A stretch of 64,000 nt of DNA from Balanoglossus misakiensis (Eukaryota; Animalia; Hemichordata). This document shows, one piece after another, positions 687-11,998 of the stretch. The DNA lies in contig CM082581.2 in the NCBI GenBank assembly GCA_040954595.2, positions 8,144,059 through 8,208,058 on the forward strand, read 5' to 3'. The position numbers and the translations under genes are program-made. Every line of letters begins with the position of its first letter. Position 1 is the first letter of the stretch. Below the pieces are notes generated by a model. The model searched no databases, was not told the DNA's origin, and worked only from the letters and a program-made list of their open reading frames with translations.

Positions 687-2959
687 ATGACAACTTCAAG
701 GAAAATCTACAATTTTGCTGAAATCGGTTAGTTGCAAATAATGTCTGATTATAATCAACTTTGCTCTCAATTTTTTCCCTCTTCGTCGTGGAAATTCTGG
801 TTTGCACTATTTCTTATTATTTTCCAGCCTAACGATAACATAATCTTTCTTCTCCAACAGCGGTTGCAGTGGCCTTAATGTTGGCAACGTTTATCAATGG
901 AGCACCAACTGTTGCCGCCCCAAGTGAAGACACGGTGGCAGATTCCTACACAACTTTGTACCAGAAGACAGTCGCTTTCTATTCGGAACATCAAGAAATC
1001 TACAAAAAATTTGTAAGTATAGTGATCTCATCACTCAGCCGATTACATAATGTGGTTTTAAAAATAGCTGATTTTTTCATTACCGCATAATTAATTGTTG
1101 GATCCGGGAAATACGGGCTGGATTTAGGCTTATAGGTTCTCTTGTATTTATGTTTCAATGTAGTATTTTATTCCACTCTGGACCCGCTCTGATTCAACAA
1201 CATGTGTGTATGTCTGCACAGTTGAGAAACTGGATCACGCGACCGTGTAATGAGGCCACGGACCACGTTGACTGACCCAAATCATAATATTATCCGAGTA
1301 CACAACATGTGGTTGTCCGCTCCCGCGGCTATTCCACTCAGTAGCAGGTTAAAGGCCAAACAAGCGAGACTATTAAATACGCGCGCTGAAGCCAACTTCG
1401 CTTATATTATGAAACACTGTACAGTTTGCATTTACTTGTACATGTATTCATGTTACGGAGATCTGTTGGTGAAGCCGGAAAAAACTTCAAAGGTGTTTGA
1501 TTTTTTCACTTAAAAGAAGCTCCAAATAATGTCACATTTTACACTGAGGGTCCATGAGTTGTTGCGCACTTTACGGAAATCCAGACGTGCAAACTTAAAC
1601 ATTGGGCTTGTTCTGTGGTGTGAAGTCAAGGAGGAAGTCAATTTAGTATTTACTCGCTGTCAGTGGTCGCGAGGAGACACGCCCAGGCACTTTGATACCC
1701 CGTGAGGCCTTGTAGATACACATACGTTCGAATGTTCGGTTGATTTGTCATCAATTTGCCATTTGTGAAAAAGTACACCCGCACGAAACCCAAAAGTGCG
1801 TGGTGATGACGCGATAGTCAACCGCCTTTACAATGAGGAAATCACAGAGCTATTTTTAGCCCAGACTAATACTTAAATTGTCTCCTCCTTTTTTGGTGTT
1901 TACAGAAAAGCATCCGCCTTGACAACGAAGACATCATGGACGATATCCACAGTTTCAATTTCGAAGGTTTGCCAACTCCAGTCTCAAGATTCTTGGCATT
2001 TCGTATGGAGGTAGGCATACCCTGTTCTTTGAACACTTCCATGAACCAAAGACCGAACATTACAAACAGCAACGTCATTTCCTTGAAAGACCCTAAACCG
2101 TTCCCTAGAGCAATACATGCATGCAGCGCATACCGCTTATCAAGGATATGGATGTTCGATTGAAAGCGCGCCCTCTGGTGGCCTCTACGCCGCACCCTGG
2201 TTCCGAATCGTAATACTTCGTAATACTAATAGTACTTCCTCCATTGACTTTCTCTTTAAAACATCTTTTCTTCATTCAACCAACAGGAGAAAGATTTACT
2301 GGTTCTGCACAGAGACAACTTCCAGGCATTCCTGTCCTTTGTCCAGATTATGTACATGGAAGAGTTGGATCACGAAGCTGAGGGTCTTTCAGATCCCTTC
2401 CACGAGGAGTTCCAGGAAATCCGTCATCATCTGAACATCGTCATCAATAATCTCAATTCATTGGTGAGTACACTTACAAACACAATTATTTTGCCATGTT
2501 TATTATTGGTAAATTTACGTCTTGGCGGGTGGTATATGTTTTCTCTATTCAGCAACAGTAAATGACACGTGTGGTTGTATTACTGAGGTCAGCGGCATAC
2601 TGTTTATACGTCCAAAAAAACTTGTGAACTTATATGAAAAAGGTGAAATGATGATGACGATGGAGGTGGTGGTTGTGATTATAGGCGATAGTAGGAGTGA
2701 TGATTATATGATAAAAAAAAATTCTTGCACAATGCAGAATGATACTGATAGTTGTGTTTTCTTTGACTTTGCTCCGCAGCTGCACGCTTTGGGGTACCCA
2801 GACAGTGTTGACACCAGCGAAGACCCTGCCGGTGCTAGCATGCTGAATTCTGTCCACATCCGCGACATCAGACACGTCAAAGTTCTCTACGAGCTCTCCA
2901 ACTACCTGCCCAGTGCAAGGCAACATTTCGAACATCTTGGCAAGAGCTCGACCATCTAA
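687..2959 (+). CDS. Secreted 217-aa protein, putative long-chain four-helix cytokine (IL-6/CNTF-like)
   Basis: Exons 687-726, 861-1012, 1906-2010, 2287-2463, 2780-2959; all introns GT-AG, phases 1,0,0,0, giving an open frame to TAA. N-terminal hydrophobic signal (IAVAVALMLATFING-AP). Four amphipathic segments; the last, HVKVLYELSNYL, resembles remembered CNTF helix D (LKVLQELSQW). The gene model is well supported; the family call is inference. Confidence 0.7.
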
Positions 2960-4073: not shown

Positions 4074-4627
4074 TTACCAGAATACATATTTTTAAAATGC
4101 GTTTCTATCCACAATGCTCTTGTGTTGCTTGTGATCCTGAGCGATCAAAGCCCGGGGTCAAATAATTGAGCATACGGGTCACGGCCATTAAAGGACACAG
4201 CATCATGTGCCTATGGTCGTCTTTTAGCCTATTCAAATCGCGGCCAAAGACTCCAAAGACTTTGACGCAGCCGCGACACATGCAGACGACTATATTTTGC
4301 CATCACCATCATCGAATACCACGACGAAATTACTATCTGTATGATTTCTTCCAAACCAGAACGCAACATTAGCCGTAGGCTAGGCGGCCTCTACGTTCAG
4401 CTTTGCCACATGAGGGCGCTTTTGTTCAACAGTCGTTGAACTTCCGGTCGTTTTTGGAGAGAGGAGGTGACTTAGTGGAGTGGCCATAATCTGAGGACTT
4501 GGCGTTCGCCTGAAACTTTGAAGTCATGTTCGTCTTTAGCCAAGCTTTCACTTGCCTATAAAGCAGGTAGTACCCGAAGACTTTATTATTTCCTGTTTTA
4601 TTTTGTTGAAATAGTCAACGTTTCATC

Positions 4628-7600
4628 ATGCAGGCTCAAGCAAACGGCTCCCAGTACGGGTCGCATGATGTCATCTCAGCACATCCGGTCCCTGGCTCTA
4701 CTGGTGGCCATGGGAAATCCACCCCACTGCCAAACAAAATACAGCTAGCTGCCAGATTTGACCCAAGTTCAGACAGCAGTGATTTCTCAACAGACACCAC
4801 CAGCAGCCTGTCATCGGATTCAGATGATGATTCGCGTGAGGCGAGTTTGAGAAGGCCAGGACAGGAACAACAACAATCCCAGCCTTTGCATCATTATCAC
4901 CACCACCATCATCAACAACAACATGAACCATGGTTCCAAAAGCAAGTTTATCAACCTCAGGTTAAAGAGAAAGTACAGCAGAAGCATCTCAGTGTAACCG
5001 AACACAAGGAACATCCTATGCAAACCGATGTTCGAAGGTTTAATGATGGTCACGGATATAACCTATATTCAGAATCCAAACGTTCCAGAGATGGGGTACA
5101 ACTTCTGCCTCCAGTTGCATTCCAGCAAGAAACAAACGGAAAGCCGGCTCCCGGTGGTTATCCATACGCTCAGCCAGTGGGGCAGAAAGGAGAGTCTGGA
5201 ACCATGAAAACATATAACTATGGTTCCATACGAACACAGAGTCCCACATACGGTGGGTATCTGGAAGAGGAAGATGACAAGGTGCAGGATGGAGACCTTA
5301 TAATGCGCAAAAAAGGAATCAGGAGTGAAGACAGGCCAGCAGTGGAAACTGGGCTACAGTACGGCATTCCATTTCCAGGTAAATGTATGAGCGACTTGCA
5401 ATCCCGTCAGATGCCCTCTGACCCCGAGACAGGTATCGCTGATAGTTACAGCCAGGGGTATCCTAGCGTTAGCCAAGGCAGGGATGACACAAGTGTGGAC
5501 AAGGAGCTGTCTGAGCATAGGAGTTTGATTTCAGAGGCAGATACCGGTGACGTTTCGTCTGTGTCTTCAGATTTAAGTGGCGTATCAGGGCTAAGGAGTG
5601 AGAAATCTTCTCGGCACAGAGGTAGGGTTTTCAAGGCAAATGTCATTATGTATATATATACTAGTATCAGGCAAGCTACCCTATGGACATTTTCCATCTG
5701 AATATTACCCACCAATCAGTTAGGAAAGGGTTCAAAATAGAGTTATGATAAGTTTTCACTGTATTGTGTTTAATTTTGACAGGAATTGGCAGAGGCAACT
5801 TCGGTGCCATAAAAAGCAGTGTTGCCCACCTGCAGGTTGGCAACAGCGACACAGTTCCCAGATCTTCCTCTGATACAACAATGACGAACGCCAACAGGGG
5901 AACTGCGAGGCAGGACTCCCAAGACAGCCCGACTGGCGGAAGTAACTCCTCAGAAAACTTCTGCAGGAACAAGTGGCACGGAAAATCCGACTCGGAAGGC
6001 AATCCTCACGGGCAAGGCGGCTACACCTACAGAGGCAAATTCCGGTCAAGGCGCGGGGTGGGCGGCCATCATCACCACCACCACAAAAGCCGGGCGCACG
6101 GAGGGAAGAAGTTCCATCCTAGCAAACACCTCTCCAGGGAAGACAAGTGGACGACTGGTGCGGATGTGGGTAAACCGTCACCGATTAAAACCAAGGCTCC
6201 CGGAGTTGGTGGCCAAGAGTTAATGGACTCTGACCCTGAAACAAAGAAGAAACCCCAGATGTTACAGATGAATGAGAAAGAGTTGCTGCGAACGGAATAT
6301 GATTGGCAGAAGCATAAGATTGAGAGAAAAGTGAAGATGGTAGGTTTAGCACCCATGATGAACTTACAGTTGTTGGTAATGTCAAACAAACCACTATTGT
6401 AGTAGTTTTGTATTGATAAAAATGATTCAAAGAAAGTATTCAGGAAGAAAGTTAACATATTCTATACCGACAAAGTCTTGTTGTTTCATTACAGGTTCTT
6501 AATGGTTTGTCAGAAAACAAAATGTCTGATGCTGTCCATGAGATAGAAAAGATTCTGAACACTGGTAAGAAATATCAGGTCATGTTTTGAATCTAACCGA
6601 GCAGGCTTATATGCAGTTGTCTTTTTGGAACCTAGTATCACCTAACTGATTGGGCATACTTCCCCATATTCAACCATGCTTAATAACTTGCTACTTGTTT
6701 TTCTACTGACAGGAGTTGCAGAGCTAGCCAAGTTTCCGTGGCCCAAACATCTGTTCATTGCGTTGGATGTGATAATCAGCTATGGTGTTGAGGACTCAAC
6801 TGCTCACGATACAGTCTGTATTTTAATACAGCACTTGGAAGGCAAGTCTTCCCATTGGTAGAATAAAACGATCTGTTGCTGTTTTTTTGTTGAGTTGTGA
6901 ATTTCGACTGATTGTACAATGGTAGAAAAGATGGTAAATTGTTTTTCCTGTAATTCTTTGCCATAAAACTAGGTCTTCATGCTGAGGGGTTTGACCAACA
7001 GATCAGCCAGGTTCTCTGCAAGAAAATGGGAGAGTATATCAAGGTACAGTTATTTCTGCCTTCTGTGCAACTTTATGTTGCGAGTGTACCATCTTTGGAA
7101 AAAGGTTCACGTTATTTGTGTGTAAGGGCTAATCAGTTATGTCTAAAAAGATTAAACGTAATTTGCATCATAAACAGTTGACTCACAGAGTGAATGTTTG
7201 CATTTGTCTTTTCTCAGCCATCTGGGGCCAAGGATCAGCAGTTACTGTCGTACAGTAGACTGCTCGGTAAGTTGTATTTGATGGCTGTGATGAGTACATC
7301 GGGTTTGAAGAAACAAGTGTCAGCGTGTGTGCACAGCAGCATTGAAAAGTGGATCAGCTTCAACAAACAGGTATGTGTCACATAGTTATATTATTATATG
7401 TGCAGAGTCATTGAGAATGGGGTGATTGTTCCACACAGCATTGCGGGGCTCATAATTTACAAGTACTCTGCCCTGTGTAACATGAAGTCTAAACTAAATT
7501 CAATTAGCTTCAGGTGTCATATACACAGTGTAGCAACGCTTTTCTGTTCTGTTGATCCTTCAGGGCCAGAACCCACCTCCAGATGTTCTCGAGACGTACA

Positions 7601-10392
7601 CAAACTGTCTGACAGCACTGCTGAAGGTGATTGGAAGTTACTTGGACAGGTGTGAAGAGAAACTGGCTGGCCAATATGTGGATATGATCCGGGAAAGAAT
7701 CCTGACTGAAACTAATGTACCCAGGTAGGAAGAGAGTAAAATGACAAACGTGTGTGGTTTGTATAGGAGTACATGGAAAGTAAATATTTTAATGTACTAC
7801 AGTGACAATTTTTCCTTGTTAAAATTGAGCTGAAGGTTCGTTTTCCAGGGCTGAAGTTCTGTAGAAGTTACTTATAGAAAAGAAAAAACTGCTGGAAAAA
7901 TTTTAATTAAATATTGATATATTTTACTTAGGACAGTAAGAGAGAAGCTGTTAGACTTTTTACTGCTCCGGGCAGTTGGTTGGGACAATCCAGTGTTGAA
8001 GACACATCAAAGTGTGGAGAATATAGCGTTATCTGACACTGGGGTGAATACTGACAGTGTAGACACTGAGGATACGAGTGTTCAAGTTCAAAGCATTGAG
8101 AATCCTGTAGATGTCAAGGATGTTGGTGTTCAAGTTAACGACATTGAGAATGCTATTGTTGAAGGTCAAGGACAGTGTAAGTGTAATAGTATGTCAGCTT
8201 TCAATGGTAAATGATCACTTTCTTAGGAAGACTTTCACTGCTTTTCTTGGCTTTGTCATGTAAATTAACCACATGCAAAAGTGATAGAAGTTACGCGTGA
8301 GGAAAATTATTGCAGTAAAAATAGTTACTCTATTTTTATTCACAGTCACAGCTCCTGACTGTTGTGGGCACCATGCTAACAATGAGACACTGGAACACAC
8401 TGTTCCAGAAACAGAAAAGCCAGTTGCTGCTGCGTCCAGTCCTTACGGTAATGTACGCAGCATGCTGACAGAGCTAAATCTCGAAGAGCAATTCGACAAA
8501 TTTGTGGAGAATGGAATACGGGTAAGAATATCGCTGCCACACTTTCACTCCTGTTTAGATCCAGCTGCTCACTTGTTACCACTTGCTGTAATTTTTCGGC
8601 ATTTGAGGCATTTACATGACACAGACTGCATTTTTTTTAATTCCGCAGGATTCAGTTCTTATGGCCGATTGGAACGATCTGAAATCACTCCTGAAAGAGT
8701 GTGGTTTTCTTCCAGGGACTATTCTAGAAATCCAGATTTACTTGAGAAACAAAAGTAAGTGATTAAACAGCTAAACAAATTCTACCCCCCCCCCCCCCTC
8801 CCCATTTCCCAAATCCTTGAACTCTCTTTGCAGTTCTTGAAAATTAAAAAGTCGGTGTGGCCTTCCATAATAAACATAAGCTACTTGTCAATATGTGATG
8901 CATCCCTCCTCTTTGACCAGGACAAAGTGATAACTACCAGAAATTGGATTCAGAGATTATGTCAGCCCCAGGCAAGGACAGAAAGAAGGTGGTTCCACTA
9001 TCCACACAGCAGCCAGGTGTAAACGCAGCTGTGAACCTGGCAATGGCCGCAAAATGTCTCCCGACTTCTATCATGATCAGTGGTAGACACGTTCTGAGTA
9101 GTAATGGAGGTGACAATATCCAGGGTAATGTCACTTCAGCTCAATGTCTCAGTGCAAAGGAAACATGCGCAGCTGTTGGTATTACTGCAGAGAAGGAGGC
9201 TGTTGTGTCAGAATCAGCCGAACATGATGATGAAAATTGGGGCAGATGTGAAGAAGAGGAGGTGGAAAATGATGATGTTGTGTGCAGTGCTGTTGTTAAT
9301 GATGAAGATGATGATGGTGGTGGTGGTGGTGACAACAACGTTGATACTGTTGATCTGTGTGGCGATGGTACTTATGATGCTTGTGTTGATGCTGCTGATG
9401 CCGATGCCAATGATGATGATGCTGATGATGATGGTAGTGATGATGATAATATCGAAAGAAGCTCTGGTACCTATGTTGGTGAGATCAGTGGTGGTTGTGA
9501 TCGTGCACCCGAGGACCAAGCTGCCTTCAACAGTGAAGTGTTAGCAAACATGTCTGAAGAAGCAAGAAAACTGATCCAGAGAGACGCCACGCTCAGAAAG
9601 CAGATGTTCCATCAGCAGCCTCCAGAAGGCAAGCCGCCAGGTGGAAACCTTAAAACTGGAACAAAATCTGCAGTGGTTACTGAGGAAAATCCATCCACTA
9701 CTACAGAGAGACACAAGGGGCGTAACATCAGTGAGTGGAATTATCAATCTTTACCTGTAAGAGGTCACCAGAGTGTGGATGCTGTGAGATCACACTCGTC
9801 TGATGGGGAGAGTAAGACAGACAAGAACGACACCAAGGCGGGATATCTCAAGTATGACTTGTCGCCAAGAGCGATGAAGAAAATGCAGTCACGTCAGCGA
9901 GACACAGTTGAAAGTCAGTCAGATTCTTTGCATGGTTATGGCAAGCATGATAAAGTCACTACCAAATATGCAACTCGTCACCCTGGTAAAGCAAGCTCTA
10001 CGAAAACATTTCACGCCACTGAAAACCAGAAGAAGTCCCCCGAAAAGCAGCCAAGACAGGTAGATGGTGTCACGGGCCATCATTCACCACCAAAATCTAA
10101 GAAATCAAACCGTCTCCGCGGCTGCGAGATTTGCGGCAGCAACAGCCACACCCTGAGGGCATGTCCGGTTTTCTGCAAATACGCCCCAAGCTCTCGCAAA
10201 CACAAGGGTGAAAATCCCGAAGAGGAATCGGAAAGCGTTGCCACGCCCCTTGACAGCAGCGAAGGAACCTCAAGCGGGGATGACACGATGGCCACTGCCA
10301 ACTTTGGCGTGCGCAGGGTTTGCAGTGTGTGTTCCAAGCCCGGACATTCCACGTTTCACTGTCCAAAGAAGTTCAACAACTTTTTTCTTTAG
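4628..10392 (+). CDS. ~1377-aa protein with MIF4G domain, SAM-like domain and two CCHC zinc knuckles (putative RNA/translation regulator)
   Basis: Exons 4628-5621, 5783-6339, 6495-6564, 6713-6841, 6973-7043, 7218-7370, 7564-7724, 7932-8176, 8346(or 8352)-8521, 8649-8754, 8921-10392; phases consistent, 4134 nt total. MIF4G-type motifs: RKVKMVLNGLSENK, SRLLGKLY, NCLTALLKVIGSYLD, REKLLDFLLLRAVGW. SAM-like: VRSMLTELNLEEQFDKFVENGI...LKECGFLPG. Knuckles: CEICGSNSHTLRAC and CSVCSKPGHSTFHC. AATAAA at 11094. Confidence 0.75.
9295..9450 (+). repeat. GAT/GGT-rich trinucleotide low-complexity tract (poly-Asp/Gly) in the last exon of the MIF4G gene
   Basis: Runs of gatgat and ggtggt encoding NDEDDDGGGG and DDDADDDGSDDD. 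Confidence 0.7.
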
Positions 10393-11998
10393 CTTGTCAT
10401 GCCATATATCGAAGGTAGTTTTTGACTTTCATTAACTCCTTTTTGAGTGCAAGTACCACACACTTTCCCTGTGACCCACCGCATCACCTGACTGTTGGTT
10501 TGATTTGGGGGTTTAAAAAAATCCCAGACACACTTTGTATGATAGTTACGACAGCTTGCATTCACGCAAATTTGAACCAGTTATCTCAACACATCGAGAA
10601 AACTGGTTTTTGGAAGGTTAAATAAACTGGTTGTCACGTGATGGTTGTGTAAACAGTGGTCACACTGAAATAACATAAAATGGAGGCCGTCTTTGCGCTG
10701 TTGGGATTTCTGATGTGAAGTTGCATGATAATCGGTGGTTGTTGGATTTGTTCTTGTTAGTTGTTAATTAATCTGTCTACGTTATCCTGAACACCCCTGG
10801 ATGAATAGAAATTCACAGATTCAGTCTGTGGGATTTTGGTATAGAAGAAACTGCCATACTGCTGGAAGGATTGTCAACACATCTTTGACAGAAAATCTTG
10901 TTTTGCCCCAGTGAAAAGTATTTTGTTGTGTTAAATGTATTACGGTATAGTCATTTACCTAGAATTCAAGCATACATAATCATTAATGTTCCAAGCATAC
11001 TTTGATACAATTTTCATTTCATAAACCTTTGTTTACACCAACTCTGTTAGAATACATTTCAGTTATGTTACATTTACCTTTTTTGGAACTGTTAATAAAA
11101 GTTAAGACAACTTAATGCATTGTAAGGCTATTTTTGTTCAAATAAGACACTGCAAAACAATTTAGGTTTGGTGCACTGATGAAACATTGTTGCAAAGAAA
11201 TTTAGTATGTCATCTCCACCAGAAATGAAGATGTATTTTTAATTATTATACCCAGAGGCAGTGTGGGTTAACACATTCCAAACCCTTATGTGTAGCAAAC
11301 ATCCATCGTATGCTATCTAACAGTCCATAAGAAATTAGTAAACCACAATATAATATTTAAGATTTTATTTCAAAATACAAATATTAAATATATATTCAAT
11401 AAATAGAAATTAAAAGAAAATTGAAAATGAAATTCTGACATACATAACAAAAAAATTGTCAGCCAAATAATGTGTGGCTCTTTGGTTTCATAATTAAGAA
11501 TAACATTCTGATTAAAATAGCAAACTGATAAGCTCCTTCCTTGGCAAAGTTCAGGAGTACATATTCATGGCAGTTGTCTCAGATCAGGTGACAATATTTC
11601 TCAAAGACTCATCACTAGAGGGCAATGTTCATCCCAGCTTGACGCACTCTCTGTATAAACGGACGGAGCTTCTCAATAGCAAAAGCACTGGTTCATAAGT
11701 TTGTCCTTCACTTTTCAATAGTGCAGGCAATCTGTGGGAGACGTCATGGAGCTTTCTGTAATTGAGAATGAACAAGAAGATGATGAGAATATGACGCATT
11801 TGACTGTATGGTCGGGTGTAGCTGTGGGACTTCAGCATTTGCAAGGACGGTGGTGGAAAATGTTTGAATACTTTGACAGTGAGGCTTTCATTAGAAGAAT
11901 TTCCAATTCAGTCCAGGATGTACCAAGTACCAATACAGACACAGACAGATGAAAATTTGATGAAAATTTAATATGGAATGACATAAAAAATAACTTAC

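Follow-up and report, generated by a model that had tools for sequence, protein, structure and literature searches.

The window considered here is a stretch of 64,000 nucleotides (nt) from the hemichordate Balanoglossus misakiensis (NCBI GenBank assembly GCA_040954595.2, contig CM082581.2, positions 8,144,059 to 8,208,058 of the forward strand), and our subject is a gene near its start that encodes a MIF4G-like domain, a SAM-like domain and two CCHC zinc knuckles (Table 1). Splice sites read from the genomic sequence give 11 coding exons at 4628-10392, joined into one open frame of 1387 amino acids (aa) from the ATG at 4628 to a stop codon at 10390-10392; the introns are 127-207 nt long, nine of them GT-AG and one, with its GC donor at exon 4, GC-AG. 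This is a real gene, and it belongs to a family that is older and wider than was thought in an earlier note made from the letters of this DNA alone. That note had already given the MIF4G to exons 2-8 and the SAM to exons 9-10, as we do, and the acidic linker and the two CX2CX4HX4C knuckles that it described are there, the knuckles with exact spacing. The Arg-Gly (RG) patch that it quoted is also present but only partly kept in the related hemichordate Ptychodera, and the conserved Arg-Gly motif is rather GIGRG, at aa 332.

Table 1. Features of the MIF4G-SAM-knuckle gene and of its neighbours (positions in the window)
Feature	Position	Strand	Remarks
Exon 1, aa 1-331	4628..5621	+	disordered, Ser/His/Gln-rich
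Exon 2, aa 332-517	5783..6339	+	GIGRG at exon start, RG/His patch, first MIF4G helix begins
Exon 3	6495-6564	+	part of MIF4G
Exon 4	6713-6841	+	part of MIF4G; GC donor
Exon 5	6973-7043	+	part of MIF4G
Exon 6	7218-7370	+	part of MIF4G
Exon 7	7564-7724	+	part of MIF4G
Exon 8	7932-8206	+	end of MIF4G
Exon 9	8346-8521	+	part of SAM
Exon 10	8649-8754	+	part of SAM
Exon 11, aa 898-1387	8921..10392	+	long disordered region, knuckles, stop codon
Motif, aa 37-44	4736-4759	+	common to window protein, Ptychodera, Saccoglossus, sea urchins and Acanthaster
RG/His patch in exon 2	6028-6057	+	sequence
MIF4G, divergent, aa 499-730	6283..7986	+	exons 2-8; family profile and orthologue model
SAM, aa 836-895	8441..8747	+	exons 9-10; best conserved domain of the family
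Acidic stretch, aa 1000-1080	9226..9468	+	net charge -31; Ptychodera acidic there too
CCHC knuckle 1, aa 1299-1312	10123..10164	+	second knuckle here also in Saccoglossus and three sea stars
CCHC knuckle 2, aa 1365-1378, with 9-residue Phe-rich tail	10321..10389	+	terminal module of the family
Small upstream gene, four coding exons joined in phase 0	878-1012, ~1906-2010, 2287-2463, 2780-2959	+	sequence
tRNA-Pro	14799-14871	+	tRNA gene
tRNA-Lys	23267-23340	-	tRNA gene

When exon 2 was searched against longer proteins, one relative emerged from 161 candidates, the uncharacterised Ptychodera flava protein P0001 (XP_070540901.1; 48% identity). Because this RefSeq protein aligns colinearly with our model, from the N-terminus (exon 1) into exon 11 and up to about residue 1160, we consider the exon chain to be independently confirmed. 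One could still argue that two adjacent genes were fused in our reading, or that the knuckles came from the gag of a retroelement: the Ptychodera model stops short of the knuckles, Saccoglossus stands as two pieces (P0013 and P0019), and the exon joins were read from genomic sequence. However, exon 11 is a single open frame that aligns at its beginning with Ptychodera and at its far end with Saccoglossus P0019 (SAM and both knuckles), MIF4G, SAM and knuckle occur in single chains of Lingula, Owenia, Nematostella, Xenia and one further record, and the knuckle holds its terminal place from cnidarians to hemichordates. We think that such an artefact is largely refuted and hardly credible; the two separate genes that the earlier note had itself envisaged appear improbable, since the single frame and the one-chain relatives speak against them. 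The upstream neighbour ends 1.7 kb before the ATG. Read by eye, the interval 4440-4627 has an AG that resembles an acceptor, 13 bases upstream of the ATG, and around 4468 a site that resembles a donor, which suggests a short, putative non-coding first exon within it; beside this lies what we take to be an ETS-like motif.

The domains themselves are divergent. Pfam makes no call for MIF4G (PF02854; 0/11) or for SAM on the 11 single exons of the window, nor on Ptychodera P0001, and the window knuckles fall below its cut-off; among 16 trimmed family members it matches MIF4G in four (best E 5.5e-4) and SAM_2 in just two (best E 0.037), the best MIF4G score in a Pfam scan being 20.1 bits, where the cut-off is 30.8. 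The window protein is nevertheless matched, with E 4e-69 and 1e-28, by family profiles from which it had been left out. The same kind of profile, applied exon by exon, recovers the MIF4G in exons 2 and 4-8 (E 2e-12 to 0.006; exon 3, E 1), in the order of the profile, and the SAM in exons 9 and 10 (E 3e-16 and 2e-8). An AlphaFold2 model of residues 415-790 of Ptychodera P0001, based on 33 aligned rows, has a mean pLDDT of 84.5 and consists of ten helices, a disordered linker and five further helices, with the MIF4G helices mostly above 90 (a single-sequence fold of the full-length protein, at pLDDT 39, was unusable). The MIF4G domain is thus confidently modelled as a ten-helix (five-pair, HEAT-like) fold and the SAM, with like confidence, as a five-helix bundle. 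Since the model is that of the Ptychodera orthologue, which shares 60% identity with the window protein in the MIF4G and 69% in the SAM, and since Pfam is silent, we speak of predicted folds. The MIF4G-like and SAM-like calls of the earlier note are borne out in this sense, by profile matches in exon order and by the orthologue model, although the Pfam cut-off is not reached.

A HMMER search with the core region, using one sequence as the query, retrieved 36 proteins at E up to 0.001; 21 of these were looked up, and the 18 that carry an organism name come from Ptychodera, Saccoglossus (two pieces), two Branchiostoma, Patiria, Acanthaster, Asterias, Antedon, Strongylocentrotus, Lytechinus, Lingula, Owenia, Capitella, Crassostrea, Nematostella, Xenia and Sanderia, that is, from cnidarians, a brachiopod, annelids, an oyster, echinoderms, hemichordates and amphioxus. 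The annotation of every one reads "uncharacterised" or is an automatic label, because the family escapes Pfam. No vertebrate, arthropod or nematode protein is among the 18 named relatives, in a one-sequence search that could miss fast-evolving orthologues. Atlas clusters of arthropod MIF4GD-like proteins and of nematode DUF7627 proteins are leads as to how far the family extends. Word-index protein searches were too weak to inform on range (exon 2 retrieved Ptychodera alone, the core only itself, and a profile just two proteins that were known already), and a scan of metagenome contigs with one further family member found no locus.

The domain counts among the 36 hits, many of which are fragments, are 27 for the MIF4G profile, 22 for SAM, 18 for the knuckle and five for Tudor. 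Lingula, Owenia and Nematostella share one order, extended Tudor, MIF4G, SAM and terminal knuckle (the Nematostella knuckle being two residues short); Capitella has the Tudor and no knuckle, Crassostrea the Tudor and no SAM, sea stars have MIF4G and two knuckles without SAM, amphioxus MIF4G and SAM without knuckles, and sea urchins MIF4G alone. The window protein, with MIF4G, SAM and two knuckles, has no Tudor: a family Tudor profile run against all six frames of the window gave a best E of 6.7, with no Tudor exon upstream of the gene, which shows that the Tudor was lost at this locus. In a quick tree of 23 MIF4G domains (SH-like approximate likelihood-ratio, SH-aLRT, support only; midpoint root; seven rows on long branches), the window protein and Ptychodera group with a support of 100, the named deuterostomes with 83, these and the spiralians with 88, and the cnidarians fall outside. 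All this is most simply read as a single old gene that lost domains repeatedly, although some of the losses may be only apparent and due to incomplete gene models. Judged from the sequences compared, the family is at least as old as the cnidarian-bilaterian ancestor, and its older form, as these architectures have it, carries an extended Tudor. The word "lineage-specific" in the earlier note fails for this reason, with relatives in cnidarians, spiralians, echinoderms, hemichordates and amphioxus.

The note was right, on the other hand, in finding the combination unfamiliar. We found no description of MIF4G with SAM and knuckle, of Tudor with MIF4G, or of the locus identifiers of the orthologues in the literature searched, from which subscription journals were largely absent, and the combination is apparently undescribed, each part being of a known kind. 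The family may be among the 12 unnamed Tudor groups, four of them in more than two phyla, that are listed by Piccinini 2025 (PMC12147562). PMC4793324 lists mussel eIF4G and Tudor-SN and nothing more relevant. Two sets of proteins deserve separate mention. P0015 (392 aa), a hit by its SAM only, is a different protein: it joins a CABIT domain to a family SAM that is 65% identical to the window SAM over 62 residues, and possibly arose by a recent shuffle of SAM exons. P0021, P0023 and P0067 (250-350 aa) have no domains besides a divergent MIF4G and the SAM, lack the disordered arms, and form a compact paralogue group.

What does such a protein do? The earlier note had thought of a regulator of translation or mRNA decay, and one candidate is a translational activator similar to DAP5 or PAIP1, in which the knuckles would choose mRNAs and the MIF4G would recruit eIF4A or eIF3 independently of eIF4E. 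The best solved matches of the family profile are indeed PAIP1 (E 7e-7), DAP5 (3e-6) and eIF4G3 (1.5e-4), with SLIP1 lower (0.03), and in Foldseek, run with the model, the top ranks go to DAP5 and eIF4G (E 4e-5 to 5e-4). Taken as a single sequence, Ptychodera P0001 finds SLIP1 (E 0.003) and DAP5 (E 0.027) in a search of solved structures; in the Atlas, MIF4G clusters match its residues 412-655 with a score of 0.93, those of MIF4GD-like type on top. PAIP1, DAP5/eIF4G2 and eIF4G (PDB 3rk6, 4iul, 1hu3, 2vso) share with the family the ten-helix fold and a basic R-K-x-K patch in the first helix, which is well kept (R in 18, K in 19 and K or R in 21 of 24 members). VIA, however, leaves CWC22, eIF4G and DAP5 tied at Z 17.1-18.0, with a root-mean-square deviation (rmsd) of 4.1-5.2 over 195-203 residues (eIF4G 2vso, Z 17.9, rmsd 4.8, 203 aligned; DAP5, Z 17.6, rmsd 5.0, 198 aligned), and gives PAIP1 Z 16.6. 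The identity with PAIP1, DAP5 and eIF4G is about 20%, and the family differs from them in a longer first helix with a family-specific Trp (21/24 members), in the SAM, the knuckles and the Tudor of the orthologues, and in the modules that it lacks. MA3 and W2 were absent from the Pfam scans of the window exons and of the 36 hits, and it is the SAM that follows the MIF4G. PAM2 was found in 0/22 members by a motif pattern, and by Pfam in neither the window exons nor the 36 hits. The eIF4E-binding motif (YxxxxL-hydrophobic) does not occur in the window protein and occurs six times in 22 members, against 8.5 expected.

The position that bears most directly on eIF4A is the one matching N86 of DAP5, where the change N86A abolishes eIF4A binding (PMC4402527): only 3/24 members have Asn there, and the next residue is Lys in few. 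In the window protein Asn520, followed by Gly, occupies this position (mapped by alignment and a presumed construct boundary). The poor conservation of this Asn weakens the case for a plain eIF4G-like role, and we regard the activator as unlikely. An idea involving a putative CWC22 motif was dropped, PMC7261170 having given no confirmation.

SLIP1/MIF4GD, the solved protein that the Ptychodera sequence by itself matches best, consists of one domain of about 220 aa and no more (chains of 222-224 aa), against 1387 aa here. Mextli has a KH domain, and neither a KH nor a 4E motif was found in the window protein or in Ptychodera (Pfam; motif scan). It is otherwise comparable as a long regulator of translation, distinct from eIF4G, in which a MIF4G is found and which binds eIF4E, and it stands with eIF4G, DAP5, NCBP1, CTIF, SLIP1, UPF2, PAIP1 and NOM1 among the HEAT-domain proteins of translation (PMC9177959). 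In the tests run for eIF4G, DAP5, PAIP1, SLIP1 and Mextli, the architecture thus matched none of these named families.

An adaptor for mRNA repression or decay, working in somatic and germ cells, has to be weighed as well; its MIF4G would bind DDX6 or another helicase, or its SAM and knuckles would bring a tailing or deadenylating enzyme. ZCCHC14/GLS-1 and Smaug recruit tailing or deadenylating enzymes, and ZCCHC14 and ZCCHC2 combine a SAM with CCHC knuckles, as here. The MIF4G domains of CNOT1, UPF2 and CWC22 also fit the modelled fold. The terminal knuckle has its best solved match in a TUT4 knuckle (E 2.5e-4), although nucleocapsid knuckles match too, and Y-x-P-P-H-L-R, presumably a motif of DDX3-type proteins, occurs in 3/22 members against 0.02 expected (P0005, P0009 and P0014, from Lingula, Nematostella and Xenia; it is absent from the window protein). 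On the other side, ZCCHC14, ZCCHC2 and Smaug are not known to have a MIF4G, none of them is among the 18 named hits, and the ancestral Tudor would be left unexplained. By VIA the modelled SAM is close to the Tric1 SAM (8ucy; Z 10.6, rmsd 1.6, 61 aligned), the Atlas SAM clusters (0.85) being a lead only. RNA-binding SAMs have a basic patch, whereas by inspection the last helix begins here with the hydrophobic G-x-I-L-E-I, and the family SAM may resemble polymer-forming SAMs. The decay adaptor is in our opinion rather improbable. As for a factor that acts against viruses or transposons independently of the piRNA pathway, the rapid change of the sequences and the many domain losses would suit it, but the quick tree broadly tracks the species tree, there is no sign of expansion among the named members, and the window has one copy. 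Nothing else was found in favour of the antiviral defence mentioned in the earlier note, and we think this very unlikely.

The reading that we favour, and to which we give about an even chance, is that the 1387-aa protein, a member of an unnamed ancient animal family, acts as a non-enzymatic scaffold of cytoplasmic RNA granules, probably of the germline or stem-cell type. With two folded domains for interaction, one or two knuckles and some 1000 disordered residues, the chain looks like a multivalent adaptor. No catalytic domain was found in the Pfam scans of the 36 hits, and the chain, on this evidence from sequence, is without an enzyme. Tudor-organised granules are indicated by the Arg-Gly motifs and by the extended Tudor of the ancestral form, and animal-specific extended Tudors are tied to the piRNA/germline pathway (PMC12147562). 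The Tudor of the orthologues is of this type, its nearest solved relatives being TDRD1 (E 1.6e-9), Tudor-SN (2e-8), TDRKH and Drosophila Tudor. As in TDRD1, TDRKH/PAPI, Tudor and Krimper, the extended domain is found in the orthologues of Lingula, Owenia, Capitella, Crassostrea and Nematostella, as a single N-terminal copy. Its aromatic cage is incomplete in 5/5 (K, K, R, C and R at the second position; Asn in 1/5), like that of Krimper eTud1, and cages of this incomplete kind may have a preference for Arg-Gly peptides without methylation (PMC8249470). GRG is found 50 times in 22 near-full-length members, against 7.4 expected from local shuffles, and G-hydrophobic-G-R-G, at varying positions, in 12 of the 22 against 0.11. 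The latter is present in 12/17 Tudor-less and 0/5 Tudor-bearing members (Fisher p 0.0096), three of the five having other GRG runs.

In such a scaffold, the G-hydrophobic-G-R-G would be an arginine site read by Tudor proteins. The SAM, which is the better conserved domain (mean identity 42%, against 22% for the MIF4G, in 66 pairs of 12 proteins), would bind either itself or a single constant partner. A SAM is known to dock an RNA helicase in Daedalus, a piRNA factor (PMC12526068), although Daedalus and Gasz also carry a zipper and an anchor to mitochondria, are not known to have a MIF4G and do not appear among the 18 named hits. The MIF4G would serve as a platform on which a partner docks, probably one other than eIF4A held in the manner of eIF4G. 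The terminal knuckle and its Phe-rich tail would bind a partner or single-stranded RNA. In 15/18 knuckle-bearing hits the last knuckle is found 8-10 residues before the C-terminus, usually with Phe-Gly in front of it and a Phe-rich tail after it, and all 18 have a Phe within their last six residues. The long disordered arms would allow the complex to condense.

Several points weigh against this granule scaffold. The germline link passes only through the orthologues, since the window protein has no Tudor; the Tudor is found in just 5/36 hits, and its second-best match, Tudor-SN, is a general factor. Every module can be lost, the SAM in sea stars and oyster, the knuckles in sea urchins, amphioxus and the Ptychodera model. 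The G-hydrophobic-G-R-G motif was defined after inspection of the sequences and the species on the two sides of the Tudor split are related, so that this split is a lead. Finally, eIF4A-type binding is conceivable for the window protein because it keeps the Asn equivalent to DAP5 N86. The guess of RNP granules or germline in the earlier note is nevertheless stronger than before, because the orthologues carry an extended Tudor, even though the window protein itself does not. The granule, activator and decay readings also overlap, as a granule scaffold could do either of the other jobs.

A bolder version, which we consider speculative and rather doubtful, makes the family an overlooked core factor of the ancestral germ granule, with the Tudor/PIWI layer and an eIF4G-derived platform in one chain, whose Tudor reader was later traded for an Arg-Gly ligand in deuterostomes and some cnidarians. 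Such a factor would have been overlooked because flies, nematodes and vertebrates appear to be without the family. Germline Tudor proteins and MIF4G translation scaffolds are usually studied apart, and this family joined both before the cnidarian-bilaterian split; it is still present in Nematostella, Capitella, sea stars, sea urchins and amphioxus, and gives a handle on the granule control of translation among animals that have adult stem cells and an inductive germline. The orthologues in laboratory species carry database identifiers (LOC5506343 in Nematostella, LOC119739888 in Patiria, LOC582180 in Strongylocentrotus and LOC118415026 in Branchiostoma), which puts expression and knock-out work within reach.

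The small upstream gene, at 878-2959 on the forward strand, has a signal-peptide-like start and encodes amphipathic helices; Pfam found no match on its single exons, and its product may resemble the long-chain helical cytokines of the IL-6 kind. On the other side, a single open frame on the reverse strand (11832-13133; 433 aa from stop to stop, Ser/Glu-rich, no Pfam match) converges on the MIF4G-SAM gene. Further along, from 15900 to 47800, Pfam identifies a mitochondrial carrier, which we take to be mitoferrin-like, a COMPASS-Shg1/BOD1-like gene, an actin-family gene and glucosidase I.

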